Both the position numbers and the translations under genes were made by a program. A DNA stretch of 35,424 bases, from positions 1 through 35,424 of the IMG/VR virus record IMGVR_UViG_3300024518_002913; one strand, 5' to 3'. Origin of the DNA: a virus. This document shows, in pieces, positions 112 to 35,424 of this stretch. The notes below the pieces were generated by a model. The model was given only the letters and a program-made list of their open reading frames with translations, did no database searches and was not told the DNA's origin. Each line of letters opens with the position of its first letter. Position 1 is the first letter of the stretch.

Positions 112-228
112 ATTTTCATCAGATGCAACATTCAAAGCATCAGCCATTTTACCTTCTTGTAAAACTTTGTAGCTTACTGGCATGTAGGGAATGTCCCACT
201 TGAATGGCTTTCTAAAAAGTTGAGGCAT
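1..228 (-). CDS. 5' (N-terminal) part of the junction-spanning tail structural protein gene (continues at 35424..33586; 651 aa on the circle)
   Basis: ATG at 228..226 sits directly after the stop of the upstream gene (229..231). It reads MPQLFRKPFKWDIPYMPVSYKVLQEGKMADALNVASDENV and continues in frame into LITRNGYTRYNSTQLHSTKEINSVSYF of the 33586..35379 ORF. Confidence 0.7.
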   Translation of the reverse strand, partial: MPQLFRKPFKWDIPYMPVSYKVLQEGKMADALNVASDENVLITRNGYTRYNSTQLHSTKEINSVSYFKDNSGTIRV

Positions 229-541: not shown

Positions 542-1597
542 TTATACCTCGTACCCTGCATAATCGCCAACAACGTCCCGAACAACTGACGGTCTGCCTC
601 TGTTTCTACCTAATACCTTTTCAAGTTCTTTCTTTTCTTCGTCATAATTTTTTTGTTTGCTTTCTGCCCCTGACCTATCCCTAAACTCGTACATTTTCCA
701 TAGCATCCCTTTCATCCATGCGGCTTCACATTGTATAGGTAAATCCATTTCTCTTTCAATATTATAAAACATTTCATGCGGGCGTCTGTGTACTGAATAA
801 AGCATCGTCCTAGCTTTATCTGTTGCGCCTGATGATACTTGTGGATAAATAGAAATTCCTTCTAATCCGTGCCAGTCAAATGATCGTGGCGTCCCTTCAC
901 TACTTGCAACATCGTATCGTCTTGTTCTGTTATTGTTTCTTCTATCTAAAAATACCGCGCTTTCTGGGAAATACATGTGGTCAGATGAAATTTGATCTAT
1001 TTCTGACGAACTTGGCGGCGTTGGTGCTGTGCTTGCTGGTACTGCCGCAACGCTTGCCGTAGTATCTCCATTATTCGTTATTTGTGAAGAATAATAAGCG
1101 GGACCGTAAACCGTTTCACCCGCTGCTAATTCTGCAACATATACATTTCTATAAATTATTTTTGGCTCGTAAGAATCATCGCCGTCAAATGTGGGAATAT
1201 CTGTTACAAGTAAAGTTAGGTTTCCAGAAGTCATTAGTACGCCTGTTCCCGCTGGGCTTGGCTCTGATTCCATATATTTTTTTGTATCTGGGTCATAGAT
1301 AACAAAAGTTATATAGGGCTTATAAGTATTAGTTTCCGTTAATGCTCCACCGCCGCCCAACGCTGTACTTGGAGCCGCTGGAATATCTATTGCAAGGTCT
1401 ATAAATTCCTGACTTGCTGGTATTAGTTTTTTAAGCTTAAAATTAAAAGCGTCATAAGGTAAACTTTTTACAATATCATTTTGAATTTCATTACCCCAAC
1501 GAATAGCCCGCGCTAACATAGTTGAGTTTGTCGATGAACTCCAGCCTTCATCTAAGGCTCTATCTAGCATTTTTTTACAATTCCAATACCTAGACAT
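542..1597 (-). CDS. Putative virion structural protein (adaptor or tail, 351 aa) with an Ala/Pro/Ser-rich linker
   Basis: ORF track 542..1630. ATG at 1597 is preceded by AAGGGG and overlaps the upstream stop by 8 nt (ATGTCTAG). The call rests on position between capsid and tail genes; no motif recognised. Confidence 0.5.
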   Translation of the reverse strand: MSRYWNCKKMLDRALDEGWSSSTNSTMLARAIRWGNEIQNDIVKSLPYDAFNFKLKKLIPASQEFIDLAIDIPAAPSTALGGGGALTETNTYKPYITFVIYDPDTKKYMESEPSPAGTGVLMTSGNLTLLVTDIPTFDGDDSYEPKIIYRNVYVAELAAGETVYGPAYYSSQITNNGDTTASVAAVPASTAPTPPSSSEIDQISSDHMYFPESAVFLDRRNNNRTRRYDVASSEGTPRSFDWHGLEGISIYPQVSSGATDKARTMLYSVHRRPHEMFYNIEREMDLPIQCEAAWMKGMLWKMYEFRDRSGAESKQKNYDEEKKELEKVLGRNRGRPSVVRDVVGDYAGYEV

Positions 1598-2663
1598 TTT
1601 TAGCCCCTTCTGTTCTGTAGCATAAGGCAAGAATGAAAAGCATTGCCGTGCCTGTTATATGCAAATTAAAATGCGTTAATGATGAAACAAAAGAACCTAG
1701 TAGCATAGCAATTAAAAGCGGGTTAGTTTGTTTATAGAATTTTTTAATATAGATTGTAACAATTCCTAATCCCAATAAACCGTAATGATAGAACAATTCT
1801 ATATATTCATTATGGGCTTGGTTTGCTTTCATCCCGTAGGTTTTCCATAGCAGGGAGTTTTCAATTATGTAGGCTGTTCCGCTTCCTATAAATAGATTAT
1901 TTAGTCCCGTTCTATGAATTATTAAGTTCCATATTTGAATTCTGTGATTTTCTACTAATCCCGACTTAACAAGGGCGATAGTTCCCAAAACCCCCACAAT
2001 AGGAAGAATCCAGTAGAATTTTGCTATATTCTTGAAAAAGTAGGCTCCTAGGATCGCTCCTAAGACGATAAAAGGAGTCGTTGCACTAGTGAAGTACAGG
2101 CAAATTAAAATCACCGGAGTAAAAAAGATCCACTTCTTCCTGAAAAATACAGGTAAGGAAATTGCTAGGTATGACCCTAAACTTCCCTGATTATCAAAAG
2201 TACCAACTGATCCAAACGGCTGGTAGTTAACTTTTACATCCATTGAATAAAAATCAAATAAATATATATTGAAATTCGGTAACACCGAAAAAATACACTG
2301 GATTATACAAGAAATAGCTATCCCATTTAATATTATATATAAGTAATCTTTCTTCACTGACCTAAACTGTAGGCCAAGGGCAAGCGTTGCCGCTATTGAA
2401 AAGAATTGAGATATATAGGTGTATGCTGTAAAATTTACAGTGTTAAAAAAAACTAATGAAAGAAAGGCTCCGAAGATTATTCTTTCTTTTGGGTTTGTTT
2501 CTGAAAAAAAACCAAATAAAAAAACTGATATAAAAACTAAAAATAGAAATCCCATTTCATGGGCGTGACGAGGCAAAGCTATTTGTTTACCAGCCTTAAG
2601 AAAAAGGGGGAGTGCGATAAACGCCCCTCCCCAAAAAAAATGAAACATTTTTTCTTTATTCAT
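1590..2663 (-). CDS. O-antigen ligase/polymerase family (Wzy_C-like) polytopic inner-membrane protein
   Basis: 357 aa and hydrophobic throughout, about 10 or more predicted TM segments. Family-like motifs: GTFDNQGSLGSYLAISLPVFF, TSATTPFIVLGAILG, NHRIQIWN...LFIGSGTAYI, ANQAHNEYIELFYHYGLLGLG (the aHNxyL...G..G signature). Confidence 0.7.
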   Translation of the reverse strand: MNKEKMFHFFWGGAFIALPLFLKAGKQIALPRHAHEMGFLFLVFISVFLFGFFSETNPKERIIFGAFLSLVFFNTVNFTAYTYISQFFSIAATLALGLQFRSVKKDYLYIILNGIAISCIIQCIFSVLPNFNIYLFDFYSMDVKVNYQPFGSVGTFDNQGSLGSYLAISLPVFFRKKWIFFTPVILICLYFTSATTPFIVLGAILGAYFFKNIAKFYWILPIVGVLGTIALVKSGLVENHRIQIWNLIIHRTGLNNLFIGSGTAYIIENSLLWKTYGMKANQAHNEYIELFYHYGLLGLGIVTIYIKKFYKQTNPLLIAMLLGSFVSSLTHFNLHITGTAMLFILALCYRTEGAKNV

Positions 2664-2665
2664 CG

Positions 2666-3187
2666 CTATTTGAGCAAAATCATAAAGTCAACGTCAGCAC
2701 TTGCGCTTTCATCGTCTAAGAAAACACCTACCGGAATGTCAGTAGCGACTACTGAGCCGAAAGCTTCTGATTGAATTTGACCCGCTGTATTTTCTGAAAC
2801 ATAACCTTTATCTCCTGCACTTGCAGCATCATTAGTCACGTCAAAAACTACGCCGGTATTAATCCCGTATGTTTGACATCTACAATTTTCATCATCTGCA
2901 CAGTCAGAGGCGTCTGCCTTTGCAATAATACAAAGTGGTTGCGCCCCTGCACTTGTTGAAGTCGTTGAACTATAGCCGTCATCTTCTGTGGTTTCTTGAA
3001 CCATTAACCAGCCGTCACTAACACCGCCGCCGCTGGTATTCTTGACGTAAATGTACCATTTTTCAATAGAACCGCTAACCGCTGTTCCCTTTGAATCTTG
3101 TTGAAAACTTCTTCCTACTGGTCCAATATCCGCAAAGGAAATTGAAGCAAATAAAGAAAGAAGAATTACTAAAAATAAATTTTTCAT
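2666..3187 (-). CDS. Exported protein (173 aa precursor) with a Sec signal peptide, unknown function
   Basis: ATG at 3187 is preceded by AAGGGG. The N-terminus MKNLFLVILLSLFASISFA|DIG looks like an SPase I site. The mature part is Gly/Ser/Thr/Asp-rich with 4 Cys. It lies 2 nt upstream of the ligase-like gene. Confidence 0.6.
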   Translation of the reverse strand: MKNLFLVILLSLFASISFADIGPVGRSFQQDSKGTAVSGSIEKWYIYVKNTSGGGVSDGWLMVQETTEDDGYSSTTSTSAGAQPLCIIAKADASDCADDENCRCQTYGINTGVVFDVTNDAASAGDKGYVSENTAGQIQSEAFGSVVATDIPVGVFLDDESASADVDFMILLK

Positions 3188-3201: not shown

Positions 3202-4230
3202 TTATCCTGTTATACCTGTTAAAGTTGAATTGTACTTTAATTCTGAACAAGCAATATTTCCATATAGAAAAATACGTTCCAGAATCGCATCAACTGTCTC
3301 AAGGTCTTTGATTGATTGAACTCTCATATTGTGGTCTTTATGAACGTGCAGCTTAGTATGCCCTTCATCAATATGGTAAAGTTGTTGAGCCGTAATATCT
3401 TGGGAAGTGAAATAATCAATCCCGTTATATACTAATGACTGCCCTTTGTTACCTGCTCCACTTAACGAATTGATTTCGTTTTGTGTTCTTTGATTACCTT
3501 GCAGTAAACCTTTAATAGCAGTAAACACACCAACTGTAGTCGCGCCCATAGTTGCGCCACCTTGGCCAGCATAAAAAGTTGCATCAAAAGATGCGTCTAA
3601 CAATGCCTTAGTCAAAACACCACCAGCCGCTGTAACAGTAGCCGCCCATGTACTTAAGTCAGTAGAACTAATTCCACCGTAAGAACCTGAACTTTGAACA
3701 AAAGAATCAAAACCGTCAAATTGATCGGTATCATTATTTTGTGAAGTTGCGGAACCATCAGAAAGAATACCTTTCAGCATTCTCTGTGCCATTGCACCTT
3801 TAGCAACTTGAACCTTTCCAGCAACTAATTTTAGCTGACCATGTTTACTTGCGTTTTTCGCAATGTCTAGTTTATCAACTACTACTGGCTCTTCAACTTG
3901 TCTCCACGAATGGAAAGAAGCACTTAGATGCTCAACGGTTTGTAATGAAAGTGCTGAACCTTTAGAATAAAATCCCCCTGGAGTCCCCGTTTCATCAATG
4001 ATTGCTAACGGACATTTAATCCTATCGCCGCCATCTTCTAATTCTTGTCTCTCTCTGAATCTCTGTAAAAGATAATCAGAATTAAATACACCCATAGTTA
4101 ATTTGTCTTTAATCAAGTCGTGGGTAATCGCTTGAAGCTCATTAAATGTGTAAACCCCTCTACTATCTTTCAGTAAGTAGGCAACTGAAAAATATAAAAA
4201 GGAAAACAGATTCTTTAAAATTGTTTTCAT
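3202..4230 (-). CDS. Major capsid protein (putative)
   Basis: 342 aa, immediately after the scaffold-like gene, with a strong RBS (AGGAGGG). Size, position and Gly/Ala/Thr-rich core are typical of HK97-fold capsid proteins. Confidence 0.6.
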   Translation of the reverse strand: MKTILKNLFSFLYFSVAYLLKDSRGVYTFNELQAITHDLIKDKLTMGVFNSDYLLQRFRERQELEDGGDRIKCPLAIIDETGTPGGFYSKGSALSLQTVEHLSASFHSWRQVEEPVVVDKLDIAKNASKHGQLKLVAGKVQVAKGAMAQRMLKGILSDGSATSQNNDTDQFDGFDSFVQSSGSYGGISSTDLSTWAATVTAAGGVLTKALLDASFDATFYAGQGGATMGATTVGVFTAIKGLLQGNQRTQNEINSLSGAGNKGQSLVYNGIDYFTSQDITAQQLYHIDEGHTKLHVHKDHNMRVQSIKDLETVDAILERIFLYGNIACSELKYNSTLTGITG

Positions 4231-7347: not shown

Positions 7348-7443
7348 TGTTCCAAGATAATCCTTTTTTCCATTTATTCCAGTGTACTTGGGAATGCTCC
7401 AATAATTGTGGTAAAAGAATTGCTTTTCTGTTTAACTGAAAAA

Positions 7444-7869
7444 ATGTCCTATAGATTAAAATGCCAAAACAAAAATTGTAGCCATGAGTTTTTGCGGTAC
7501 TGGCCTAAAGACGAATACGAAACGCTTCAATACAATACGGTTAATGGTGAATATAAAGGTATAGCTTGTTTTGATTGCGGCTTCCCTAAAATGGTCGTGA
7601 TGAAATCAAAGCAAGTGGCAGATGATGGCTTCAAGGCTGGCTTTCAAAGAAATATAATGAAATACTGCAACACTTATGCGGAATATAAGGCACATTTAAA
7701 AAATATGGGATTAATAGAAATTGGCTACGAAAAAACAGAAGATAGGAAGTTTTCTGAGCCTTTCTTCACTCCTGATCTATGCAGACAATTAAACCAAAAA
7801 CATGGAATATCTCTTAGCCCGCTAGAAATGGAAGGGCTTAACAAAGAAATTAACGAGGAATCAGCATGA
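7444..7869 (+). CDS. Zinc-ribbon protein (141 aa), hypothetical
   Basis: ATG at 7444 (MSYRLKCQNKNCSHEF...CFDCGFPK) gives a CxxxxC...CxxC ribbon. The track's start at 7342 adds an unlikely hydrophobic extension overlapping the portal start. Confidence 0.5.
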   Translation: MSYRLKCQNKNCSHEFLRYWPKDEYETLQYNTVNGEYKGIACFDCGFPKMVVMKSKQVADDGFKAGFQRNIMKYCNTYAEYKAHLKNMGLIEIGYEKTEDRKFSEPFFTPDLCRQLNQKHGISLSPLEMEGLNKEINEESA

Positions 7870-8714
7870 AAAAGTTTTTACTATCAGTTATATTATTACT
7901 TTTATCAGTTAATTCTTACGCCATACCGGAAGTTGATGCTGTTAATCAATTATTAAATGGGAGTGGATTAAATATAGCGCGTGGATTATCGCCAAAAACT
8001 TCCTTCGTTCATAAATTCGGTAGTGCAAGTGATTTCGATATAGATGCGGGAATTATAACGGTTTGGGACGGTGCAAACGATGCACTAGGTCTGGCCTTCG
8101 CTTATACTTATTCTGCTACGGCTGACATTACACAAATAACATCAAGTAGCGCATCTGATACTGAAATCATAGAGGTACAGGGTTTAAATTCTGCGTATGA
8201 GCTTGTAATCCAAAATGTAACCTTAACGGGCACTACTGCTGCAATTCTTGAAACTCCGTTAATTAGAGTTTTTAGAATGAAAAATATTGGCTCAGCTGAT
8301 ATGGTAGGAACTGTCTATCTTACTGTTTCCGGTGCTGGCTATGCTGCTGCTGGCGTTCCTGATACTGCCAATGAAATTAGGGCAATGTTAAGTATCGGTG
8401 AAAATCAAACTTTAATGGCGCTCTATACCTGTCCGGCTAATAAAACCTGTTATCTTTGCTCTTTCTATGCATCAACATCAAGCGCAATTAAAACAAGTGC
8501 CCATATCATTAGACTTAAAGTCAGACCGTTTGGTCAAGTTTTTCAGACTAAGCACGTTGCTTCTATTATTGCCAATGGTGTTGGTCACTTTATTCATCCC
8601 TATATGGTTCCTGAAAAAATTAGCGCCAAGTCGGATATTGAAATGAGAGCTAATACAGACTCAAATGTGGCTGGTGTTTCTGCTGGTTTTGACTTGATCG
8701 TTATTGACGATTAA
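7866..8714 (+). CDS. Exported beta-rich protein (282 aa) with a Sec signal peptide, unknown function
   Basis: MKKFLLSVILLLLSVNSYA|IPE signal peptide. ATGA overlap with the upstream gene. Transcribed opposite to all neighbouring genes. Confidence 0.6.
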   Translation: MKKFLLSVILLLLSVNSYAIPEVDAVNQLLNGSGLNIARGLSPKTSFVHKFGSASDFDIDAGIITVWDGANDALGLAFAYTYSATADITQITSSSASDTEIIEVQGLNSAYELVIQNVTLTGTTAAILETPLIRVFRMKNIGSADMVGTVYLTVSGAGYAAAGVPDTANEIRAMLSIGENQTLMALYTCPANKTCYLCSFYASTSSAIKTSAHIIRLKVRPFGQVFQTKHVASIIANGVGHFIHPYMVPEKISAKSDIEMRANTDSNVAGVSAGFDLIVIDD

Positions 8715-24442: not shown

Positions 24443-24463
24443 GCTAGGCTATAAACCTAGCCT
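24443..24463. terminator. Hairpin between the convergent early (+) and late (-) operons, a candidate bidirectional terminator
   Basis: GGCTAGG (24443..24449) pairs with CCTAGCC (24457..24463), flanked by A-rich and T-rich runs. It overlaps the last codons of the 24449..24769 gene. Confidence 0.5.
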
Positions 24464-24769
24464 TTTCTTGTGAACGCACCTAAAATCTCTTAGACCTATT
24501 CTTGTCTCTTTATTTGCTAGGTCATAGACATCAACTTGAAAGTTTTTCTTTTTGCACTCGTCTTTGTTCCAGAATTTCCCTTTTTTACAATAAGGAAAAA
24601 ATAGGATTCCCGCTCTATCTCTTTCAATAACTAAGATTCTGTTATCTTCCGCATACTGTCTTATTTTAGAGGCGCAAGCCGTTAGGGTAACACCTATAAA
24701 TACTCCAATAAGAACGGCTTTAAAATAACGTAAAAAACTCTTAATTTTATATAGTGTCTCTAATTTCAT
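24449..24769 (-). CDS. Outer-membrane lipoprotein, o-spanin-like
   Basis: Lipobox VTLTA|C after a hydrophobic segment. Last gene of the lysis cassette, with a 4-nt overlap with the upstream gene. Confidence 0.45.
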   Translation of the reverse strand: MKLETLYKIKSFLRYFKAVLIGVFIGVTLTACASKIRQYAEDNRILVIERDRAGILFFPYCKKGKFWNKDECKKKNFQVDVYDLANKETRIGLRDFRCVHKKRLGL

Positions 24770-25893: not shown

Positions 25894-26187
25894 CTACCTT
25901 TTAATTAAAATTAATATGGTCTTAATGTCACGGTCTATTCCGTCAAGCTTACGATATACTCGAACCATACCTTTTTCACTATCCTTTGACTTGCTTTCAA
26001 GAATTGAGATTCTTTTATCGTTGCTTCTTGATAGCGCTCCCTTGGAATCTTTCTTATATCCGCTGAAAATACTGTTAGAATAAGCTCCCAAGCCGCTAAC
26101 TATTGCAAGAATAATACTAGCAGCACCTATTTTTTTCCCAGCTTGGGTAAAGGTTAGCTTAATTTCCTCTTTTCTTTTCTCGGTCAT
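25894..26187 (-). CDS. Single-TM hypothetical protein (97 aa)
   Basis: TM segment IGAASIILAIVSGLGAY; ATGA overlap with the 1119-aa gene. Confidence 0.45.
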   Translation of the reverse strand: MTEKRKEEIKLTFTQAGKKIGAASIILAIVSGLGAYSNSIFSGYKKDSKGALSRSNDKRISILESKSKDSEKGMVRVYRKLDGIDRDIKTILILIKR

Positions 26188-29100
26188 TTTTTCTGCCTTT
26201 TAAAGTCCTTTGGTCCCGATATTTGCCGCCTTTCATCTTGGGTTAATGCTCTTACACCCTGCTTTCTTACTAAATTTGTACTCTTTTCTACTCCACCCAT
26301 TAATTTTAATTGTGACCAATTTATAAAGCCGCCCAGAAATGCTCCCATTTTATCGCCAACTGTCTGATTTACTGCCCTACCTGATCCAGAAGTATTTTGC
26401 TTAAATTTTAAAGTTGAATCAAATTCTAATAGCCTGACAAGTTTTCCAACTTTTTTGGAGCCGAAAACGTGATTATAAACTCCCCTGTTTGTTTGGAAAT
26501 GTGATTTTATACTGCCAGCCGTAACGTATTCCGTAGGCCCTTGGCCTGACATTTTTTTTGATATGAAATTATTGACGTTTTTAACTGCTGCGTTTCTAAC
26601 TTCTTTTTTGCCTACAACTTCTTCAAGCATTTTTGTTTTTTCTAAATTACCAAATATTAAAGGCAAAAACTTATCATCGGCTGCATCTAAGCCTTTTTTA
26701 TCAAGCCCTAAGTCTGCCATCTTTTTAATTGCTCTTTCGCTCCAAGTCCATTTAACCCTTGCTTCTTCAAACTCACTCATTATTTTAGTATATTTTTTAA
26801 CATTCCTTATGGCTTTTGTGTATACCGATGAACCAACTCTAGCACCTTTTAAAATCTCTTTTTGTGTGTGTACTGTTTCCTCTATTGATGCACCCATAGC
26901 TCCAAGCATTTCATCTTGAACCCTTCTAAGTACCCTATAATGTTTATTAACTTTTCCGCCATTTGAATCAAGCACCTTCTGGGCTATTTCCCCCACTTGT
27001 TTATATTGCTTTCTTACGTCTAAAATACTTAACCTAGTTTTTCCTCTAAGCCCTTCCCTTACGTCTGAAATAACATTAAATAGAACCTCTTGAACTTGTT
27101 TATATGCTTCCGGCTCAAGTTCCTTTGTCGTTTTATGTGGAACCCGTCTTAGTTCTTGGATTTTCTTAACAGTCTTTACACCACCGTAAGGAATTTTTTC
27201 CTTAACTTTCTTTGTTAATGTTTCTGGAATATCTAAAATATTATATCTTAGAGCAAGCCCAGCCAATTCGTCGTGATAAATTTCCATATCAACATCAGTT
27301 TGGCGCATAGATTTTTCAACCTTCTCGAATAAATCTCCTGCTTCTTTCCTTACTGTATCAATTAAAACTTTTGCCTTAGTTTTTACTTCCTTTCCTGCTG
27401 TTGCTGGGTCGAATCCCTCACTTGATATTTTCCCAAAATGTCGCTTCAAGTATTTTCTTGTTCCTTTCAATGTCTTTTCTACGTTCTTTCTATATCTATA
27501 TCCCCAACTCCAAGGATTCTGCTCTGCTACGATCTTTTCAAGTTCTAGCATTCCCCTATCGCCTGACTTTTGCCCTCTTGTTGGTTTTGGTAAATCAAAA
27601 TCTCTTGCAGCTTCCTTGAGCATATTTGTTTTTTTCCAAGGATCGTACTCTCTTAACATTCTCAAAGGCTTATAAAAATACTTTTTCCTAAGTGATTTCT
27701 TAATCCCTTTAAAATAATAAGGTGTTGCCCTTTTTGCTGTTGCTCTAACAACTCCCGGCCCATATTTTGAAACTGCTGAACTTCCTAATCCAAGCGCAAC
27801 ATCAAATCCAAGTGATTTTAACTCTTCTTCTTTTGATGCTACTTGTGGATTCCCTGCCATTGTCGATAAAACTTTTCTAAATCTGTTTCCGGCAACTGCC
27901 CCAACTGGATGCCCTATAGGTCCAAGCGTTGAAATTGCCATAGCCTCAAATGGTACATAAGGAAGTACGCCAACTAATTCGGCAAAATCTGCTACTGAAA
28001 TCCCGTCTTTGTTTACTGGGCGCCATTCTCCTTCTTGGAATACATAAAATTCACCTGAGCTTTCATCATAGGTTAATTTTCCATCTGGAATACTTCGCCT
28101 TAAAAGCTCCGCCCTATTTGACTTTTCACCTTCTATCGAATGCCTAAGCCTTAGATTCTCCTGAAAATCTCCTAAATCTGCCTCTGTGTCTGAAATTAAT
28201 ACTTCTGAACCATCTTCTAGTATTAACGATTTTGGAGTATCTACCTTGTCTTTAAATTTTTTATGAAGCCTTCTAAACTCTTTTTCTTCTGCTTCCTCTG
28301 CTTCTGCTTGTCCTGAGTATTTTTCATCTAAGGCTGCATATTCTGCATCTTCTTCTTTACTTGCCGTTTCTCTTCTAGGGTCGTTCCTATAATTTCTTGG
28401 AACGCCTAGGGGGTCTCTTTCATCTTTTTCTATAGGGTCCTGTTCGTCTAGCTCTTGTTCTTTTAAAAATTTCTCTTTCTTGTTTATTTTTTCTTGTTCG
28501 TTTTTATATCTTTCATTTTCCATTTCTTGTAATTCTTTCATCAGCTTTTCATAATTATCATTAATTACTTTTAACGATCTCGCCTTAGAATTGGAATCAT
28601 TCATTATTCTTTCTTTTTCTTCCGCCTGTTCTTCTTTGCTTTGAAAATCACCTTTTCTTATTTTTTCTTTTAATTTGATTAATTGATTTTCGTTATATTC
28701 TTCAATACTCCTTGAGCCTTCTAAAATATCTTTTGTTAATTCTTTTCTGTCTCTTTCATTTTCTATTGCTATCCTTCCAATTTCTTCTTTAACATCTTCA
28801 TCCGTTGGCTCTGATTCATATCTGGGGAGGCTCATTCTCTCATGTGGGTAAAGCTCTCTTTCCCTGCTCATTCCGCCATCTAACCCCTTTTCTCTGCCTC
28901 TTTTAAATACAAAATCCTGATCTTGAAATATTGAATAATCTTGCTCTCTTGCTGGCGTTGATGTGATGCCTTCAGCCGCTGACTGAGGTGACCTATAAGG
29001 CTCCTCATCTTCTCCTGATGGTATTCTTCCTTTGTAATCTGTTTCTGTTGTGACAACATTAACCATACTTTTATGATCGGCTTTTCTTTCTTTTATTAAT

Positions 29101-29543
29101 TGTCTATGGGATTCTTTCGGTGTAAAACCGTTTTTTATGTTATCTTCATGCCTCCATTTTTCATCATGGGTCATTGGTCTTTCAATATATTGATCTAATG
29201 GGATACTATATGCCCTTATTATTTCCCTTATATCTTCTGGCTCACCGATTATAAATTTATCAAAAACCTCTCTATCCATACCTAGGGCCTTATGTTTTTT
29301 CCATAAACTCTCTACTCTGGATTTTTCACCATCTGTTAATTCAAATACAGCAGTTTTTACTGTCTCTGTCTCTGGCTCCTCTGTCCGCATTTCCCTATCA
29401 ACTTTTGGAGCTTCTATAGAATCATTGCTTTTTTCGTAATATTTTTTTACTCTTTTTCTGGATTCTTCGCCGCCGCTGTTACCATAACCAATAGGTACTT
29501 TTTTTGGAAATTCTTTAAGTCTTTCTTGTCTTGTAGTTTTCAA
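26184..29543 (-). CDS. Large internal virion / DNA-ejection protein (putative, T7 gp16-like by size and position)
   Basis: 1119 aa. The N-terminal half is highly charged; a central Gly/Ala-rich hydrophobic stretch reads VGVLPYVPFEAMAISTLGPIGHPVGAVAG...LGLGSSAV. No tube or chaperone genes that would suggest a tape measure. Confidence 0.4.
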   Translation of the reverse strand: MKTTRQERLKEFPKKVPIGYGNSGGEESRKRVKKYYEKSNDSIEAPKVDREMRTEEPETETVKTAVFELTDGEKSRVESLWKKHKALGMDREVFDKFIIGEPEDIREIIRAYSIPLDQYIERPMTHDEKWRHEDNIKNGFTPKESHRQLIKERKADHKSMVNVVTTETDYKGRIPSGEDEEPYRSPQSAAEGITSTPAREQDYSIFQDQDFVFKRGREKGLDGGMSRERELYPHERMSLPRYESEPTDEDVKEEIGRIAIENERDRKELTKDILEGSRSIEEYNENQLIKLKEKIRKGDFQSKEEQAEEKERIMNDSNSKARSLKVINDNYEKLMKELQEMENERYKNEQEKINKKEKFLKEQELDEQDPIEKDERDPLGVPRNYRNDPRRETASKEEDAEYAALDEKYSGQAEAEEAEEKEFRRLHKKFKDKVDTPKSLILEDGSEVLISDTEADLGDFQENLRLRHSIEGEKSNRAELLRRSIPDGKLTYDESSGEFYVFQEGEWRPVNKDGISVADFAELVGVLPYVPFEAMAISTLGPIGHPVGAVAGNRFRKVLSTMAGNPQVASKEEELKSLGFDVALGLGSSAVSKYGPGVVRATAKRATPYYFKGIKKSLRKKYFYKPLRMLREYDPWKKTNMLKEAARDFDLPKPTRGQKSGDRGMLELEKIVAEQNPWSWGYRYRKNVEKTLKGTRKYLKRHFGKISSEGFDPATAGKEVKTKAKVLIDTVRKEAGDLFEKVEKSMRQTDVDMEIYHDELAGLALRYNILDIPETLTKKVKEKIPYGGVKTVKKIQELRRVPHKTTKELEPEAYKQVQEVLFNVISDVREGLRGKTRLSILDVRKQYKQVGEIAQKVLDSNGGKVNKHYRVLRRVQDEMLGAMGASIEETVHTQKEILKGARVGSSVYTKAIRNVKKYTKIMSEFEEARVKWTWSERAIKKMADLGLDKKGLDAADDKFLPLIFGNLEKTKMLEEVVGKKEVRNAAVKNVNNFISKKMSGQGPTEYVTAGSIKSHFQTNRGVYNHVFGSKKVGKLVRLLEFDSTLKFKQNTSGSGRAVNQTVGDKMGAFLGGFINWSQLKLMGGVEKSTNLVRKQGVRALTQDERRQISGPKDFKRQKK

Positions 29544-30695
29544 CTATTTAGCCTTTGGTACTTTAAATCTTCCGTCATTTATTCTTTTTTGTCTCAGCTT
29601 TTTATATCTTAAAAACTCTTTTTCTTCTTTAGTATATTTCTTCTTTCCTTTTTTGTTCCATTGCTGGCCGGGTAGAAGCACTTCCATTAATTTCTGCTTT
29701 ATTGGCTCATTGTATTCTGTAGCAAACGCCTTGCCCTTTCTAATAACATTTTCGCTCATTGTCTCGGCCTCTTGTTCTAGCCCGTAATCTCCACCTTTAT
29801 ATAATTTTTGATTGAAATATTTATCTTCTTTTTCATCTTGAATCATAATTTTACCAAAATGCGACGGCTTATTGATTAGGTTTACATTTCTTTCACCTAG
29901 TATGCTTAATCGTCTATCGTCTAACCCTCTTTCTTTTAACCTTCCGTCATATTTCTCTATCTCTCCAGCAAAGTTTTGAGCCGTTGCAAGTCTTAAGTTT
30001 TCGGCTGCATCAAATAACTGATTCATAACAGGTGCTGAAAATTTCCTACCAGTTTTTCCTTTTACAAAAAATTGTTTAAATTTCCCCATCCAACTATCAA
30101 GATTTTCTATAGCTCTTTCTTCTGCCTCTCTAACGACTCCGGGCTTCTCTTCTGTCATTGGAACCACTTGCCTCATTAATGACCACATATCCGCTGCTGG
30201 GAAATTTTTAGGGGTATTAATCCATTGACGCCTTAATCTTTGTACGCCTAAATGTATTTTTCTTAATCCTCTGTAACCGTTATCTAGTTTGTCTATGTCG
30301 GCTTTCATATCTTTAGAATCTTTGTCTTTGTAAGCTGTGTCTAGCCTAGCAATATAGCCAGTTATTGCGCCCATAGGTATTCTTAAGTCTACAGTATAAG
30401 CTTCCATTTCCTGTATTTCCCTTTGAGAAAATCCAAGATTCATTTTTGCACCATCATCTAGCAAGTCTTTTACTTGCTTTCTTCTTTCTTTTCTCATTAG
30501 TGCTTTTTCTTTTGCGCTTCCTTTATCGTCCCCTTCTGCACCTTTTTTCTTTGCCCTAATTAATTCAAGCGCATATTTTTGCTTAGTTGCTTGATCGAAT
30601 CCTTTAGCAAAGTTCTTAGAAATATTATCTTCTATCCGCCTTGATTCTGCGTCTAACTTCGCTTGCTCTGCTTGTGATGTATCGAAAAAGCTCAT
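29544..30695 (-). CDS. Putative internal virion protein (383 aa)
   Basis: ORF track; charged and helical. The call rests on position only. Confidence 0.35.
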   Translation of the reverse strand: MSFFDTSQAEQAKLDAESRRIEDNISKNFAKGFDQATKQKYALELIRAKKKGAEGDDKGSAKEKALMRKERRKQVKDLLDDGAKMNLGFSQREIQEMEAYTVDLRIPMGAITGYIARLDTAYKDKDSKDMKADIDKLDNGYRGLRKIHLGVQRLRRQWINTPKNFPAADMWSLMRQVVPMTEEKPGVVREAEERAIENLDSWMGKFKQFFVKGKTGRKFSAPVMNQLFDAAENLRLATAQNFAGEIEKYDGRLKERGLDDRRLSILGERNVNLINKPSHFGKIMIQDEKEDKYFNQKLYKGGDYGLEQEAETMSENVIRKGKAFATEYNEPIKQKLMEVLLPGQQWNKKGKKKYTKEEKEFLRYKKLRQKRINDGRFKVPKAK

Positions 30696-30704
30696 ATTAT
30701 TTCC

Positions 30705-31421
30705 TTATCTTCTTTGGAAGCCCTGCTGAATGTGTTGCCTTCCTCTTGTGCCTGAACCTCTAACATAATTATGTCCTGAACTTTGAAAGCCTTGCTGTAT
30801 ATATCCGCGCGCTCTTGATCCATATCCTACCCTTGGCGGCATTGGTGGACCTTGCTGGCCGGGAGCGAGATAGCCTTCTGCATTTCCGCCGCCTCCACTG
30901 GACCAATTTCTTTTACCCATTGCTTGACCATAGCTAGAAGCAAAGCCCCCAACTGCTGCCGTTGCCGATCCTTTAAATAATGACTTAGCAAAGCTGTCTT
31001 GTTTAACGTCATTGAATCTCATTCCAACATTAGTTCCTGAAAGGGTCGATCTTGAAACGGCTCCAAATTCATCCATCATCGCATCTTTTCTTTTGCCAAA
31101 TGAACCCCTATTAAATTCTCTTTTTTCTGCCGTATCTCTACCAAGATTTCTCGATGCGCTTGAGTAAATAGAAGTTGCACCCCCAGCCGATCCACGCTGT
31201 TTTCTTCTATCTGCCATTTTCATGTTAGCGTCTTTCTCGGCTTGCACTAGCGTTTTATCATCGCGCCCTATATCTTCCTTTACTCTATCGTCAACCCTTT
31301 GGTTTCTTCTGGCGAATCTCTGAAAAACTTCGCCTTCACCCTTTGCCGCATCCATCTTGATTTTTTTAAGATCGGCTGCCCCAAGGTCGGCTTTTAATGT
31401 TTTATCTTTAAACCAACCCAT
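30705..31421 (-). CDS. Gly-rich virion-module protein, paralog B (238 aa)
   Basis: Shares blocks with the 219-aa neighbour: LKKIKMDAAKGEGEVF vs LKRIKLAAGRGEGKVL, and FNRGSFGKRKDAMMDEFG vs LNKASFERRKDDIAKEYG. Confidence 0.5.
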   Translation of the reverse strand: MGWFKDKTLKADLGAADLKKIKMDAAKGEGEVFQRFARRNQRVDDRVKEDIGRDDKTLVQAEKDANMKMADRRKQRGSAGGATSIYSSASRNLGRDTAEKREFNRGSFGKRKDAMMDEFGAVSRSTLSGTNVGMRFNDVKQDSFAKSLFKGSATAAVGGFASSYGQAMGKRNWSSGGGGNAEGYLAPGQQGPPMPPRVGYGSRARGYIQQGFQSSGHNYVRGSGTRGRQHIQQGFQRR

Positions 31422-31423
31422 GG

Positions 31424-32083
31424 TTATGACCCTCCCGCTTTTTGTCCTAAGCCTTTAGCTAAGCCGCCCGTAAACGATGTTACTCCGCCCCTAAGTAATG
31501 ATTTCCCGAAGCTGTCTTTAGTGGTTGCGTGAAATTTCGTCCCTATGTCTGTAGTATTTAAAGTTTGCCTTGCCATGTTTCCGTATTCTTTTGCAATATC
31601 GTCTTTTCTTCTTTCAAAAGATGCCTTATTTAATAGTCTAGCCTCTGATGCGCCCTTAGACGTTCCACTCTCCGCAAGTAAACCCTGTGAAGTGTTTTGC
31701 ATCCCTGCGCCCCTAACAGATTGTGTTGCGCCTTCCTCTGCTGACTTCTGTTGCTTGGCTAGGCCTCTATCTTCTCTTTCAATATCGCCTTTTGCAATTT
31801 TGTCAGAGTCTTTACTTCTTCGCTTGTAATGCTCAAGAACTTTCCCTTCGCCTCTGCCAGCCGCCAACTTAATTCTTTTTAATTCTGCCGCCTCTGGGCT
31901 TGCTGGGTCCACAACGTCGCCGAACATATCCTTGATAGCTCCGCCTGATGCAAAATTTCCCCAGCCTTTTGCTGCTCTACTTAAGCTCGGCCCTCGGAAA
32001 ACTGAGCCACCGCCTAAGTTGACGGTTCCAACCGTTGCGGCCTTAACTGCCCCGCTTACTGTTCTTTTTAACGAAAAGCCCAT
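31424..32083 (-). CDS. Gly-rich virion-module protein, paralog A (219 aa)
   Basis: See paralog B; the two genes are separated by 2 nt. Confidence 0.5.
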   Translation of the reverse strand: MGFSLKRTVSGAVKAATVGTVNLGGGSVFRGPSLSRAAKGWGNFASGGAIKDMFGDVVDPASPEAAELKRIKLAAGRGEGKVLEHYKRRSKDSDKIAKGDIEREDRGLAKQQKSAEEGATQSVRGAGMQNTSQGLLAESGTSKGASEARLLNKASFERRKDDIAKEYGNMARQTLNTTDIGTKFHATTKDSFGKSLLRGGVTSFTGGLAKGLGQKAGGS

Positions 32084-32092
32084 ATCTAACCC

Positions 32093-32446
32093 TTATCTAT
32101 TGAAATAATCCGCTACGTTTTCAAGAAATTTTTGTTTCTTTACAGGATCGGAAAGATCGGCTTTGTCGAATTTCCTTAGAAATTTGTAAGACTTTTTCCT
32201 GTCCTTGTTTTTATTTTCCTTTTTTTGCCTTTCTGTGACTTCTTTGCCTTCGAGTTCAATAAGCCTTGCAAGGTTTTTAGCTTGTCTTATTTTTTTTAAA
32301 GACGTGTCAAGAGTATCTGGGTCCCCCTCATCTTCTAAAATCTTTTCAATATTTATGACATTACCGATACGCCGATTAAACTCTACCTGTGTAATAGCGT
32401 TGACTGAAAAAGAAACTAGAAAACTAATTAATAATAATATTTTCAT
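32093..32446 (-). CDS. Exported small charged protein (117 aa) with a Sec signal peptide
   Basis: MKILLLISFLVSFSVNA|ITQ, followed by a Lys/Glu-rich helical region. Confidence 0.5.
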   Translation of the reverse strand: MKILLLISFLVSFSVNAITQVEFNRRIGNVINIEKILEDEGDPDTLDTSLKKIRQAKNLARLIELEGKEVTERQKKENKNKDRKKSYKFLRKFDKADLSDPVKKQKFLENVADYFNR

Positions 32447-32454
32447 TTTATCTC

Positions 32455-33573
32455 CTAATTATAGATATGTGGAAAGTAGTAGCATGATAAATTTTGACCA
32501 CTTTTTCTTCCGCTAACTGTCTGGCTAATATTAGCAGTGCCAGCCGAAACATTTTGCTGCACTTGTATCGTTACGTTTGTTTGATCTGTGGCGTAGGTAA
32601 ATTCACCCGTTAAAATACCTACCCCATTGTCCGCCGCCGAGCCGTCGTATTGTACAACTGCAGAAGCTCCCGTAGTTCCATCGTAAAATCTTATTCCTTG
32701 ATCCCCTGCCGTGCTAACAGAAATCATACCAGTTAAAAAGCACCTTACTGTTCCTGCTGGAATAAAACTCATAACAATTTTTATTTTAGCTCCGTCTGTT
32801 CCTGTTGTCCCGCCATCTGCTGCGCAATCTGTTGCATTAACGCCACCGTAACAAGTGCGCGCAGTATCTCCGCAGTCGTCATCATCTGGAAAATTAGTCC
32901 ATGAAGTCCCTGAGCCTATCCACTGACAATTAGTGGTCTCTGCCCATGTGACACTAGCCAAAAGCCCTGCCCCATAAGGTGCTTTATAAACTCCATTAGC
33001 CCAACTTTTAACAGTATTTTGATTTATATCGCTCGATCCATCATTAAAAAATCTACCTAGGATTTTATTTCCTGAAGAATCATAACCATCTGGATCCGGT
33101 GCTGTAGTAGTAATTAATCCCGTTAGCGTTGTTCCCGTTGATCCCGTTTTTACATAAACATAATAATCTGTACTTGCTGCCTCTGCTGAGCAACCCGTGC
33201 AGCCCCATGTGACAGTGTTTGCAGTAGTGGTTTTAACAAAATTTCCATTAACCGACATTATGCAATCGCCCATAGATATGGTTGCGGCGTCACTCCAAGA
33301 TATAGCGCATCCATCCCTAACGCCATTAAGTAAAGCGGCGTAATCTGTTGTATTTAAAGCCCCATCCTCAAGAGTACCGTCAACTAGACACCCTGCATCA
33401 AGTGAGCCAGCAAGGCGGTCATAGATCGTACTATGATCCCCATTATACTTGGTTGATGTTAGTACCGTATTAGCAGAGTTTGCCGTGTATGTGTCACTGG
33501 TACACGTTCCCGCATAAACCTGACAACCAGCTGAGCAAGCCAACATTAATAAAGCTAAAATTTTCTTTTTCAT
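32455..33573 (-). CDS. Fibre / receptor-binding-like protein with an N-terminal signal peptide, unusually Cys-rich
   Basis: MKKKILALLMLACSAGCQVYA|GT. Mature part is Gly/Thr/Ser/Asp-rich and beta-like (YYVYVKTGSTGTTLTGLITTTAPD, KILGRFFNDGSS) with about 15 or more Cys. Confidence 0.5.
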   Translation of the reverse strand: MKKKILALLMLACSAGCQVYAGTCTSDTYTANSANTVLTSTKYNGDHSTIYDRLAGSLDAGCLVDGTLEDGALNTTDYAALLNGVRDGCAISWSDAATISMGDCIMSVNGNFVKTTTANTVTWGCTGCSAEAASTDYYVYVKTGSTGTTLTGLITTTAPDPDGYDSSGNKILGRFFNDGSSDINQNTVKSWANGVYKAPYGAGLLASVTWAETTNCQWIGSGTSWTNFPDDDDCGDTARTCYGGVNATDCAADGGTTGTDGAKIKIVMSFIPAGTVRCFLTGMISVSTAGDQGIRFYDGTTGASAVVQYDGSAADNGVGILTGEFTYATDQTNVTIQVQQNVSAGTANISQTVSGRKSGQNLSCYYFPHIYN

Positions 33574-33585
33574 ATCCTTTCCTTT

Positions 33586-35424
33586 TTAGTTTGGGTTTCC
33601 GTTTTTACTAATATCAATTTGCCCCCTAATCATGTTCATACTTGCATTTAATACATTCTGATAAAAGCCAACCAATAAAGATTGACCTGTTTTTAAAACT
33701 TCACCTTCGTATTTTACCACGGTTCTGCCATCCCCTAAAACGCCTTCATCTAACTTGGAGAGGTCCAAAACAAAGCCAGAATCATCTGAATCAAAATCAA
33801 ATGTTTGCAGCGTAGGCTCACTTAGTTGGTAGTCTAAAAAATATCTTGCGGTTATTGTGCTGCCTGATTCCAATGCTTTAAATATCACGCATCCAAAATT
33901 AAAAGTTGCATCAAAATCTTCCCCGTAAATCCAAGGTAAATGAAAAAAGGCGTCTATTGCTTGGGTCGTATTATCTTCCAGTGTATCCGCTCTATTTTCT
34001 TTAATCGAATGCTTCATAATATATCCGCCCGCTGTAGCGAATAAAATAATATCTTCCCCTGCTGAATCCTCGGCAAGCGCAGCGTCTATAATGTTTATAG
34101 GAAATTCATAGGGTCTAAAACCGCCTATATCTAACTCATAATTAAACGATCTTACAAAATCAGTGCGTCCTGCTGTAGAAGCAAAGGTCATATATTGGTC
34201 AAGAGTAGGGTAATAAACAGAAAAAGCATTTTTTATATTTGTTTTACTAAGTTGATGCTTGAAGCCCGTTTGTGTAAAAATGGATTTTAAATCACCATCT
34301 GCCAATTGGTAAGCATCAAGATTTTCATCGGTTTGCATTCTACCATTAACTATAACGTGCCAGCCAATTGTTGACATGAAATAAATTGCGCCATTAATTT
34401 CTTGGATCGTATCGTGGGCAACGCATCCAACATCTTTTGATATTGTAGAAACTCCATTTGTAGCATCATAAACCTCAATAGAAGTTCTTTTAAAAATACA
34501 TAAAAAGGGAACCTTTAAGGATTGCTGCCCGCTATAGAATCCAACGCCTAAGCCTGTTACTGGTCCCTGTCCGGCTGATTGAATAGTGAGGCCTGATGAT
34601 GTATCGTCCCAGCCGTCCGGTATGTCTGCCGTGCTTAAAAATACGTCTGACGGAAAGGTGCTATTTCCTGATGCTGCTATTTTATTACCAAAAACCGCAA
34701 GGTACTGCATTCCGCCCGTAGTCTGTGGCTCTGCGTTTTTAGTTGGGGGAGTATTTGAAGAAGTTGGAACCGCTGAAATATCTGTAGGCGTTGCCCCAAG
34801 TGCTATTTCTTCTATAAAAAGATAACTGCCGTTATTCGTGGAATCTTGTAAATAAACCCTAACCTTATCTATATTATTATTATCTGCGTCTGACGCTACT
34901 GCACTGATAGAGCTTAATGTCTTATTAGAGCTTGTCGTAGTTTTCTTTACTGCCGCGCCTATATTTGTTTCAAAGCCGTTTGTTGAATCGTAAAAAGTAT
35001 AAGCTAGATTATAAGCTGTATCAGCTAAAAGACTGCCCCCTGATGAAACTGTAGCCGTCAACGCTGCTGGTATTGATTGACCCAACTTACTCCAAGTCGT
35101 ACCGTCCCAAGAAAATAAACCGTTGCTTCCCATTGCAACTATGTGCCTTCCTCGAATTGTTACGGCTCTATGCTTGTTACTTGCAGTTAATAGACTTCCA
35201 TCCAATAATTCATCTTCGTCTAAAATATCAACATCTAATAAAAAACCACCCTCTATTAAAACATGGGAACCACTTGTAGAAACGGAATAAACATCTTCTT
35301 GAACTTTTGCTAAAACTCTAATAGTTCCAGAATTATCTTTAAAATATGAAACTGAATTTATTTCTTTCGTTGAATGCAACTGGGTAGAATTATATCTAGT
35401 ATAGCCGTTCCTTGTAATTAATAC
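33586..35424 (-). CDS. Tail structural protein (tail tubular / nozzle-like), 3' part of the junction-spanning gene
   Basis: The track ORF 33586..35379 remains open to the window end and continues at 228..112 on the circle, giving 651 aa. It is large, beta-rich and sits in the tail module. Confidence 0.6.
   Translation of the reverse strand, partial: VLITRNGYTRYNSTQLHSTKEINSVSYFKDNSGTIRVLAKVQEDVYSVSTSGSHVLIEGGFLLDVDILDEDELLDGSLLTASNKHRAVTIRGRHIVAMGSNGLFSWDGTTWSKLGQSIPAALTATVSSGGSLLADTAYNLAYTFYDSTNGFETNIGAAVKKTTTSSNKTLSSISAVASDADNNNIDKVRVYLQDSTNNGSYLFIEEIALGATPTDISAVPTSSNTPPTKNAEPQTTGGMQYLAVFGNKIAASGNSTFPSDVFLSTADIPDGWDDTSSGLTIQSAGQGPVTGLGVGFYSGQQSLKVPFLCIFKRTSIEVYDATNGVSTISKDVGCVAHDTIQEINGAIYFMSTIGWHVIVNGRMQTDENLDAYQLADGDLKSIFTQTGFKHQLSKTNIKNAFSVYYPTLDQYMTFASTAGRTDFVRSFNYELDIGGFRPYEFPINIIDAALAEDSAGEDIILFATAGGYIMKHSIKENRADTLEDNTTQAIDAFFHLPWIYGEDFDATFNFGCVIFKALESGSTITARYFLDYQLSEPTLQTFDFDSDDSGFVLDLSKLDEGVLGDGRTVVKYEGEVLKTGQSLLVGFYQNVLNASMNMIRGQIDISKNGNPN
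35314..35424. repeat. Terminal overlap, second copy of 1..111
   Basis: Identical 111-nt string at the other end of the window. Confidence 0.95.

Follow-up and report, generated by a model that had tools for sequence, protein, structure and literature searches.

The locus

The window analysed here, i.e. the whole stretch of 35,424 nucleotides of the IMG/VR virus record IMGVR_UViG_3300024518_002913 (positions 1 to 35,424), holds on its minus strand the gene of a fibre-like protein of 372 amino acids (aa; 32455..33573), with the gene of a nozzle-like tail hub protein upstream and that of a protein of 117 aa downstream. Four features of the 372-aa protein are central to this work: its gene lies in the late operon after the nozzle gene, it starts with a Sec-type signal with a conserved signal peptidase I (SPase I) site, its C-terminal tip is exchangeable, and its cysteines come in pairs. 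They support the proposal, weighed below, that the protein could be a receptor-binding tail fibre that matures outside the cytoplasm.

Because positions 1-111 recur exactly at 35314-35424 (a terminal repeat of 111 nt), the window represents a whole genome of 35,313 bp that was assembled as a circle. The junction falls within the nozzle gene, whose main part lies at 33586..35424 and whose first 24 codons lie at 112..183 (both on the minus strand), so that the 597-aa open reading frame (ORF) listed in the window is really a 636-aa protein. The profile of this protein matches PDB entry 8jov, a 'virion-associated phage protein' with six chains. The late operon starts with the genes for portal, scaffold and capsid, a 173-aa signal-peptide protein, a 357-aa polytopic membrane protein, the adaptor and a 76-aa ORF; it continues with the nozzle, the 372-aa and the 117-aa proteins, four ejection-like proteins and small lysis-like genes. 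The same gene order was found on other contigs. The 372-aa gene follows the nozzle gene directly, at the position of a tail fibre or receptor-binding protein (RBP), as the earlier note on this DNA had proposed.

The signal peptide of the 372-aa protein

A Shine-Dalgarno sequence precedes the start codon of the 372-aa ORF by 5 nt (AAGGAAAGGAT-ATG). Residues 1-21, MKKKILALLMLACSAGCQVYA (33511..33573, minus strand), form a predicted signal peptide with an SPase I cut after A21, and the mature protein would start with GTCTS. The n-region MKKK has a net charge of +3 and is followed by a hydrophobic stretch (ILALLMLA...) with an 8-residue Kyte-Doolittle mean of 3.15; V and A occupy positions -3 and -1 (VYA/GTC, the slash marking the predicted cut). 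The call of a signal peptide was based on rule-based features (the n/h/c layout and the residues at -3/-1) together with conservation in the family.

A search of 5.8 billion proteins yielded 84 homologues, all metagenomic and many on contigs of 33-38 kb; a profile search of 1.84 billion cluster representatives gave 159 matches at E < 1e-30 and 1326 at E < 1e-3. Proteins of this family have 250-400 aa and are encoded in phage tail modules, and the signal peptide and the export-type build are common to about 200 metagenomic homologues. The n/h/c layout was present in all 33 aligned homologues, and small residues (A/V/S/L at -3, A/G/S at -1) stood at the automatically placed site in 31 of the 33; for the remaining two (P0077 and P0081; protein designations start with P, those of loci with L) the motif search had set the site one residue early. 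A hydrophobic core was found in 194 of the 204 homologue sequences that start with M. The other ten still keep the c-region and the cleavage motif and are therefore taken to be truncated gene calls.

The position at which conservation sets in coincides with the predicted cut. In alignment A1 only M1 is conserved ahead of G22, and the conserved motif GTCTS starts at +1; the consensus of the 33-sequence alignment around the cut is AxA/GTCTSISRTN, the signal sequence itself drifting across the family. Three divergent members in which the first mature segment is replaced (P0194, P0199 and P0201) still start with a signal peptide. The earlier note had described the N-terminus as a classical signal sequence, and this description stands for the family as a whole. 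Export of the 372-aa protein by Sec is a well-supported prediction.

Two cysteines of the signal region, C13 and C17, give weak lipobox-like strings that are peculiar to the query sequence. A lipoprotein reading was rejected for the family, since the cysteines of the signal region are not conserved. With its 372 aa and no conserved lipobox cysteine, the protein also differs from small lipoproteins of the Llp/Cor type.

Cysteine content and predicted disulfides

The 372-aa protein has 14 cysteines (3.8%), slightly fewer than the 'roughly 15 or more' counted earlier; the signal peptide accounts for two of them and the mature part for 12. Six conserved cysteines are located in the N-terminal half (C24, C62, C89, C104, C125 and C128; predicted pairs 24-62, 89-104 and 125-128) and six more in the C-terminal tip. 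The number of cysteines is even in 199 of 212 mature homologue sequences, and the tips of 196 of the 212 contain 0, 2, 4, 6 or 8. C125 and C128 are always lost jointly (in about 30 members) and never singly. Obligate disulfide pairs produce such a parity, and disulfide bonding of the mature protein is a well-supported prediction. The disulfide-bonded, extracytoplasmic pattern suspected earlier is supported by the combination of the Sec-type signal, the parity and the joint loss of C125 and C128.

Modular build and fold

The family consists of a conserved N-terminal half and a variable tip. The conserved half of the query (residues 22-195; 32989..33510, minus strand) was delimited from alignment A1 and includes a beta-sandwich, modelled at about residues 90-200; the tip (residues 196-372 plus the stop codon; 32455..32988, minus strand) carries six cysteines and cannot be aligned from one family member to the next. 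Conservation extends family-wide over the first ~195 residues, and the C-terminal ~100-180 residues are replaced wholesale between relatives; the tip type of the query occurs only in L001-3, L016/L017, L041, P0006 and P0192. A conserved N-terminal half with swapped tips is the classic build of an RBP.

An AlphaFold2 model of the protein had a mean predicted local distance difference test (pLDDT) score of 67.7, with values of about 90 for residues 90-200. In a Foldseek comparison with the PDB the sole matches below E 1e-3 were two chains of 8okw (E 6e-5, 29% identity over 86 columns), an entry that shows the C-terminal end of the Bdellovibrio protein Bd2734, which is a trimeric adhesin tip of the TNF-like type; the next matches were carbohydrate-binding jelly rolls. 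The Bd2734-like fold appears to be located in the conserved half of the model and not in the tip, a placement deduced from how long the match is and from which part of the model is confident, the match table giving no query coordinates. The top named matches in BFVD were 'tail fiber', 'receptor binding protein', 'minor tail protein' and 'Mtd N-terminal domain' (E down to 3e-8, with low TM-scores). Prediction of the structure had been proposed in the earlier note as a check for a fibre-like fold; it returned RBP- or fibre-like and Bd2734-tip matches, from a model of moderate quality and with low TM-scores.

Pfam family Mtd_2nd (PF21916) matched residues 102-186 below threshold (22.8 bits against a cut-off of 24.6, E 1e-4), and precomputed PF21916 matches exist for four relatives (P0009, P0043, P0046 and P0084). 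Pfam matches to the Mtd_N beta-prism and to a C-type-lectin variable domain were not found in the 372-aa protein. A diversity-generating retroelement (DGR) was considered and rejected, as there was no template/variable repeat pair involving the gene and no reverse transcriptase among the ORFs scanned.

Other sequence searches were negative. The PHROGs contained no match to the fibre or to the 117-aa protein, a PDB sequence search with the family profile gave nothing meaningful, and among GenBank phages there was neither a DNA match to positions 26000..35424 of the window nor a protein match to the 372-aa protein. A scan of genome contigs with the N-domain alignment found none; this is a weak negative, since the scan also missed the family member of L039, which was detected by other means (see below).

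Context of the gene across relatives

Related loci were collected by fetching 28 IMG/VR loci through the nozzle protein and combining these with contigs that the fibre itself had retrieved. Wherever a locus continues beyond the nozzle gene, a member of the signal-peptide family comes after it, and immediately so in all loci except L038. The gap between the two genes is 12 nt in the window; in L004, L006 and L039 the start of the fibre gene overlaps the stop of the nozzle gene. No enrichment of promoters or terminators was detected around the 372-aa gene. The N-domain diverges in step with the capsid, adaptor and nozzle proteins. Fixed position, coupling within the late operon and presence throughout the lineage together mark the gene as a core gene and not as a sporadic moron.

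The complete genome was also inspected for other candidates for receptor binding. It contains no paralogue of either half of the 372-aa protein, including no copy without a signal, and no other protein with RBP-like features or variability. The suggestion in the earlier note that such proteins may be decoys is disfavoured for this genome, there being no second, signal-less receptor-binding module to mimic.

Two loci depart from the common arrangement. L042 (1-3301) encodes a 440-aa divergent member (P0199) after a gene that resembles, by eye, a beta-helix spike; a small signal-peptide protein follows, and then a possible holin, a protein of 89 aa that is hydrophobic towards its C-terminus. The cassette of fibre and small exported protein seems to move between phage types. 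In L038 (7314-12103) four genes lie between the nozzle gene, whose product is extended to 945 aa, and the ejection genes. They encode a signal-less 312-aa fibre-like protein, a 193-aa cysteine-rich signal-peptide protein, a short member of the family, and a long fibre (837 aa) that has a signal peptide and repeat motifs and whose tip resembles tips of the short family.

In seven loci (L015, L018, L020, L025, L026, L032 and L039) a conserved, signal-less protein of ~110 aa (e.g. MNLYQLYHSERLGMSEIAEDWGFIRYRIDGENCF...) is encoded downstream of the fibre. By eye it has the look of a small acetyltransferase-type protein, and it stands in place of, or beside, the small exported proteins found elsewhere.

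The 117-aa protein

The gene downstream of the fibre (32093..32446, minus strand) encodes a highly charged, helical protein of 117 aa with no cysteines. It is preceded by a Shine-Dalgarno sequence (TAGGAGATAAA-ATG), and the N-terminus consists of the signal peptide MKILLLISFLVSFSVNA followed by ITQ; the protein is predicted to be exported, in agreement with the clean signal that had been noted earlier. No similarity to any Pfam or PHROG family was found.

Apart from the contigs of the window itself, the 117-aa protein has homologues only where the fibre is of the query's tip type (L016/L017 and L041). They are 29-36% identical, as compared to 31-37% for the tips, and all have a signal peptide. 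Genomes with other tip types carry other small signal-peptide proteins downstream of the fibre (L010-L013, L018, L027 and L042), none, or a small protein without a signal. A small downstream gene that co-varies with the fibre tip is the signature of a tail-fibre assembly chaperone, and by this analogy the 117-aa protein is a candidate for a tip-specific, periplasmic fibre chaperone; alternatively, it may have an immunity or partner role.

Other exported and membrane proteins

Besides these two proteins, the earlier note had listed two non-lysis proteins as apparently Sec-exported, those at 2666..3187 and 7866..8714, and both were confirmed to start with clean signal-like peptides. The first is the 173-aa protein encoded directly after the major capsid gene (2666..3187, minus strand), with the signal peptide MKNLFLVILLSLFASISFA followed by DIGPV and four conserved cysteines. 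All nine aligned members of its family have the signal peptide, as does the matching ORF in every locus where one was found. Pfam Phage_cement matches one of the nine members (E 0.007), phrog_122 ('head decoration') was hit at E 0.18, and there was no match in the PDB or among phages; the AlphaFold2 model (pLDDT 42) was unusable. In coliphage SU10 the same post-capsid position is taken by gp10, a putative minor capsid protein. Tentatively, the 173-aa protein is possibly related to capsid cement or decoration proteins.

Between the 173-aa and adaptor genes lies the gene of the 357-aa polytopic membrane protein (1590..2663, minus strand), which has several hydrophobic segments and is a probable member of the Wzy_C superfamily. 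Pfam Wzy_C scored 17.9 bits (E 2.7e-3) with the protein of the window and 29.3 bits (8.5e-7) with the homologue of L004, against a cut-off of 31.7; the homologue of L041 carries a precomputed, unmarked Wzy_C match. In five homologues (20-29% identity) R241 and H284 are invariant, and a motif H-N-x9-G-x-x-G is present in four of the five; a third catalytic arginine is not invariant. The large protein search returned only one non-self homologue, and the protein is present in most of the relatives. No Pfam match to PglL_A or PglL_B was obtained at E <= 1 and none to NCBIfam; without PglL-specific motifs or an NCBIfam match a ligase, an O-oligosaccharyltransferase and a polymerase are not distinguishable for this protein.

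Essential Arg/His residues are known from WaaL of E. coli (R288/H338) and from PglL (R298/H349), and pglL/pilO genes usually adjoin the gene of their exported target in the same orientation (PMC3643930). The 357-aa protein resembles PglL/TfpO/PilO and WaaL in that R241 and H284 are spaced much as in these enzymes and in that its gene adjoins, in the same orientation, the gene of an exported protein. It differs in that the gene lies inside a phage head-tail operon and that, in the genome of the window, the protein scores below the Pfam cut-off. A Wzy_C-type gene is unusual for a virion gene module. L032, L034 and L035 lack both the 173-aa and the Wzy_C-like gene and keep the signal-peptide fibre, and L038 keeps the exported post-capsid protein without the Wzy_C-like membrane protein; export of the fibre is therefore independent of the Wzy_C-like enzyme.

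The second protein, of 282 aa (phrog_8198; 7866..8714), is encoded on the opposite (plus) strand and starts with the signal peptide MKKFLLSVILLLLSVNSYA followed by IPEVD. Homologues are present in 35 records of marine T4-like cyanophages, where some are annotated 'tail fiber protein'; they have no signal peptide and carry a different, non-hydrophobic N-terminus in its place. This points to a signal peptide on an otherwise cytoplasmic phage protein family and, judging from the cyanophage homologues only, to a marine setting. The 282-aa protein was not found in the related loci examined; a counterpart is placed at L009 2375-3151.

Genome background

The window encodes small and large terminase subunits, a P22-type portal and a major capsid protein, and the phage is a small, short-tailed phage with an HK97-type capsid and terminase and portal genes. 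The major capsid protein (342 aa; 3202..4230, minus strand) matches phrog_9953 (E 1e-23), and its relatives match Pfam SU10_MCP. The head-to-tail adaptor (351 aa; 542..1597, minus strand) is 27-47% identical to those of the relatives, among which homologues match Pfam SU10_adaptor; both families are those of coliphage SU10. For the portal protein only distant matches were found among GenBank phages.

The four ejection-like proteins (219, 238, 383 and 1119 aa; 26184-32083, minus strand) do not contain a single cysteine in a total of 1,959 residues. The 219- and 238-aa proteins are Gly-rich tandem paralogues, both of which match one gene in L010. Searches of the PDB, Pfam and PHROG with the 1119-aa protein gave no match, and it is taken as ejection-like from its position and composition only.

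A few further observations were made. An HNH endonuclease (Pfam HNH_3, E 2e-7) is encoded between the small and large terminase genes (13502-13936, minus strand). A 175-aa ORF at 7342-7869 (plus strand) has 8 cysteines; its start is uncertain, the gene caller giving 141 aa. A 106-aa protein of the lysis-like cluster (24449-24769, minus strand) has an N-terminal hydrophobic segment that ends in a lipobox-like LTAC; it has a spanin-like look, which is consistent with a diderm host. A search for tRNAs, as an att site or a clue to the host, came up empty.

Host

A nozzle-based scan of one genome per species revealed a full copy of the module (L039) on a 298-kb contig (JBFWTE010000001.1) of a metagenome-assembled genome (MAG) assigned to the Bacteriovoracaceae, which belong to the Bdellovibrionota. 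The copy comprises the signal-peptide post-capsid protein, the Wzy_C-like protein, the adaptor, the nozzle and the signal-peptide fibre. The GC content of this part of the contig is 39.9%, and 1-kb windows of the genome studied here range from 33 to 45%. L006, a close relative, has an integrase and L039 is prophage-like, so that some of the relatives are temperate. A further match, of 36.7 kb and binned as Flavobacteriales, is the whole-phage contig of L004; its binning is probably an artefact. Podophages of Bacteriovoracaceae were not found in the literature. On the basis of the single MAG contig and of the fold match to a Bdellovibrio protein, the host is likely, though not certainly, a member of the Bacteriovoracaceae, predatory bacteria whose own fibres for binding prey are secreted, resemble phage fibres and swap their tips. 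A likely predatory host with a link to the mosaic adhesive trimer (MAT) adhesins, the 357-aa membrane protein and the lineage-wide nature of the trait were all absent from the earlier note.

A proposed receptor-binding fibre that may mature outside the cytoplasm

We propose that the 372-aa protein is a receptor-binding tail fibre that matures outside the cytoplasm and docks on the particles after lysis, and put the probability of this at roughly 0.45. Attachment to the virion after lysis is what we infer and prefer, because of the position of the gene, the modular build, the fold and the tip-specific partner gene. The protein, which is translated from the late tail operon directly after the nozzle, would be exported by Sec and cut between A21 and G22; in the periplasm it would become oxidised and fold, probably into a trimer as with the similar RBPs and adhesin tips. 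The exported 117-aa protein would aid the folding of the query's tip type in the fashion of a tail-fibre chaperone. Upon lysis, when the holin has opened the inner membrane, the protein could dock by its conserved half on the adaptor/nozzle of the DNA-filled, fibreless particles that had formed in the cytoplasm, as the last step of assembly. In most relatives a second exported, cysteine-containing protein, encoded after the capsid gene, may take the same route, and the Wzy_C-type enzyme may, speculatively, modify an exported substrate with a lipid-linked glycan.

P22 tailspikes, T4 fibres and lambda gpD are examples of virion parts that can be added last, in vitro, and the signal-peptide proteins of the present phage correspond to such late-addable classes (fibres, spikes and decoration proteins). 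A wider version of the proposal would be that a podophage lineage of predatory bacteria has its fibre, tip chaperone and capsid-surface protein exported, oxidised, maybe glycosylated, and added when the holin breaches the membrane, with fibres that share ancestry and tip modules with MAT fibres; this wider version we consider doubtful.

Comparison with known systems

What is new here is an RBP-type protein with a predicted, obligate secretory route, within the known kinds of RBP. The pIII protein of Ff/M13 phages is a receptor-binding virion protein with a Sec signal peptide and periplasmic disulfides, made by filamentous phages that extrude through the envelope. Like pIII, the 372-aa protein would be a receptor binder of the exported, disulfide type, whereas the phage of the window is tailed and its heads are formed in the cytoplasm.

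Among tailed phages, Mtd, the RBP of the Bordetella podophage BPP-1, is similar in several respects: it has 381 aa versus 372, is the RBP of a short-tailed phage and has a C-terminal variable region, and its intermediate beta-sandwich is the PF21916 domain for which the near-threshold match to residues 102-186 was obtained. However, Mtd has no signal peptide and is not known to be Cys-rich, and the tip diversity of the 372-aa family arises by swapping of whole domains, with no sign of Mtd_N, a C-type lectin or a DGR.

T5 Llp, phi80/T1 Cor and lambda Lom are signal-peptide proteins that are encoded beside receptor-binding genes and often block the phage's own receptor. These proteins act in the envelope and comprise small lipoproteins and one outer-membrane beta-barrel; their expression is independent, either early or from the prophage, and as far as is known a separate RBP on the virion always exists beside them. 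In the present case, by contrast, it is the exported protein that is RBP-like; its gene is coupled to that of the nozzle, and it has no signal-less counterpart. The 117-aa protein can be compared with lambda Tfa, T4 gp38 and Mu U', which are tail-fibre assembly chaperones: it is encoded by a small gene directly downstream of the fibre and co-varies with the tip. Unlike these, it has a signal peptide and would act in the periplasm.

The closest parallel in layout is with the MAT fibres of Bdellovibrio bacteriovorus, which have a signal peptide, an invariant N-domain and swappable adhesive tips; the tips contain disulfides and were produced with a pelB leader (PMC10769870). The 372-aa family has the same succession of signal peptide, invariant N-terminal half and variable tip, and its likely host is of the same phylum. 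MAT fibres are chromosomally encoded proteins of 600-1100+ aa with long shafts and often S74 chaperone-protease domains, whereas the family described here is phage-encoded, 250-400 aa long and without a shaft; the likeness consists of the layout and of the fold match to the Bd2734 tip. Only the 837-aa signal-peptide protein of L038 resembles a long fibre.

Points against the proposal and alternative explanations

Several points weigh against the presence of the 372-aa protein on the virion. We know of no tailed phage that exports a virion protein, and a Sec-exported virion protein of a tailed phage was not found in the literature, which is absence of evidence from an incomplete coverage. As a rule, an exported protein from within a tail module serves in exclusion or conversion. 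A cytoplasmic particle would meet a periplasmic fibre only after the membrane is breached, and dilution upon lysis would make attachment inefficient. The structural model is only moderate (mean pLDDT 67.7) with low Foldseek TM-scores, and the evidence on the host comes from one MAG contig. L042 has its divergent member after a different, spike-like gene and just before lysis-like genes, and L038 carries an additional, signal-less fibre gene; judging from these two loci, the cassette behaves partly like a mobile accessory. Finally, virions of phage Milano are rich in disulfides without export (PMC10811340), so cysteines need no periplasmic route. Since such virions exist, the cysteine content alone is not decisive; the decisive feature is the conserved signal peptide.

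The explanation that competes best with the proposed fibre is that of an exported adhesin or exclusion factor, which would never be part of the virion and would stay in the envelope or on the cell surface, anchored by the conserved N-terminal half in the manner of MAT fibres. It could mask or occupy the phage receptor and so protect the infected cell, the lysogen or the released progeny; or it could provide a lysogenic predator with a new prey-binding tip, with the 117-aa protein as partner or immunity factor. We regard this as possible, though somewhat less likely than the fibre. Phages are known to encode exported proteins among or next to their tail genes (lambda Lom, phi80/T1 Cor, T5 Llp), a signal peptide and paired cysteines are typical of envelope proteins, and some relatives are temperate (the integrase of L006, the prophage-like copy L039). 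The occurrence of the cassette in another phage context beside lysis-like genes (L042) and the signal-less fibre gene of L038 point in the same direction, and among solved structures the nearest is the tip of an adhesin that Bdellovibrio secretes and displays on its surface, MAT fibres having the same layout of signal peptide, invariant N-domain and swapped tips (PMC10769870). However, the gene is embedded in the late operon, where starts overlapping the nozzle stop occur and the gene lacks promoter and terminator signals of its own, and it is universal, keeps its position in nearly every genome of the lineage and diverges with the structural genes, whereas a moron would be sporadic. An adhesin outside the virion would also leave this complete genome without a recognisable RBP and without a variable structural protein; a decoy requires a matching RBP on the virion, and none exists. 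The known exclusion proteins, moreover, are small lipoproteins or beta-barrels and do not have modular, RBP-like folds.

A second alternative, which had also been raised in the earlier note, is that the N-terminus stays uncleaved and, as an anchor in the inner membrane, retains the fibre there until the particle is assembled or the cell lyses. Phage lysis proteins make use of signal-anchor or signal-arrest-release domains, cleavage of the 372-aa protein is a prediction only, and the signal peptide of the query has two cysteines with weak lipobox-like strings. These cysteines are unique to the query, however; the small residues at -3/-1 are conserved (31/33), conservation of the sequence starts exactly after the cut, and the hydrophobic cores are short (about 8-14 residues), as is typical of cleaved signal peptides. 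By the positive-inside rule, the positively charged N-terminus would in any case place the body outside the cytoplasm, so that an anchor does not keep the protein cytoplasmic. An uncleaved tether is therefore disfavoured and, in our estimate, improbable. That the start was mis-called, and that the protein is an ordinary cytoplasmic fibre with a real start further downstream which oxidises after release, as the disulfide-rich Milano virions (PMC10811340) and the ten database homologues with apparently no hydrophobic core might suggest, is very improbable indeed. A good Shine-Dalgarno sequence stands 5 nt ahead of the ATG; no Met inside the protein is conserved, and the one that comes next in the query, at residue 101, already belongs to the conserved domain. 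The ten exceptions are revealed as truncated gene calls by their c-region and cleavage motif, and the divergent members keep the signal peptide.

Implications

Particles of tailed phages are taken to be assembled wholly in the reducing cytoplasm, and signal peptides of phages are usually read as marks of genes for lysis, exclusion or conversion. In the complete genome studied here, the one protein that is RBP-like and of the host-range type has a build that suits export and obligate disulfide bonding, as have its counterparts in about 30 related phage genomes and some 200 homologues in the databases. The finding is robust and lineage-wide at the sequence level, the presence on the virion being inferred, and it contradicts the standard assumption whichever of the explanations is right. 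If the protein is on the virion, the particles would be assembled by a new route, their parts coming from two compartments and joining upon lysis, and phages would be shown to use disulfide-stabilised adhesin folds. If it is not, phages without a recognisable RBP would decorate the envelope of their host with RBP-like adhesins, which is equally unexpected. Pipelines for annotation or RBP prediction that discard proteins with a signal peptide would miss this class altogether. The probable Bacteriovoracaceae host and the match to a MAT tip link the receptor-binding proteins of these phages to the fibres with which predatory bacteria recognise their prey, and thereby provide a lead on the origin of the MAT fibres.

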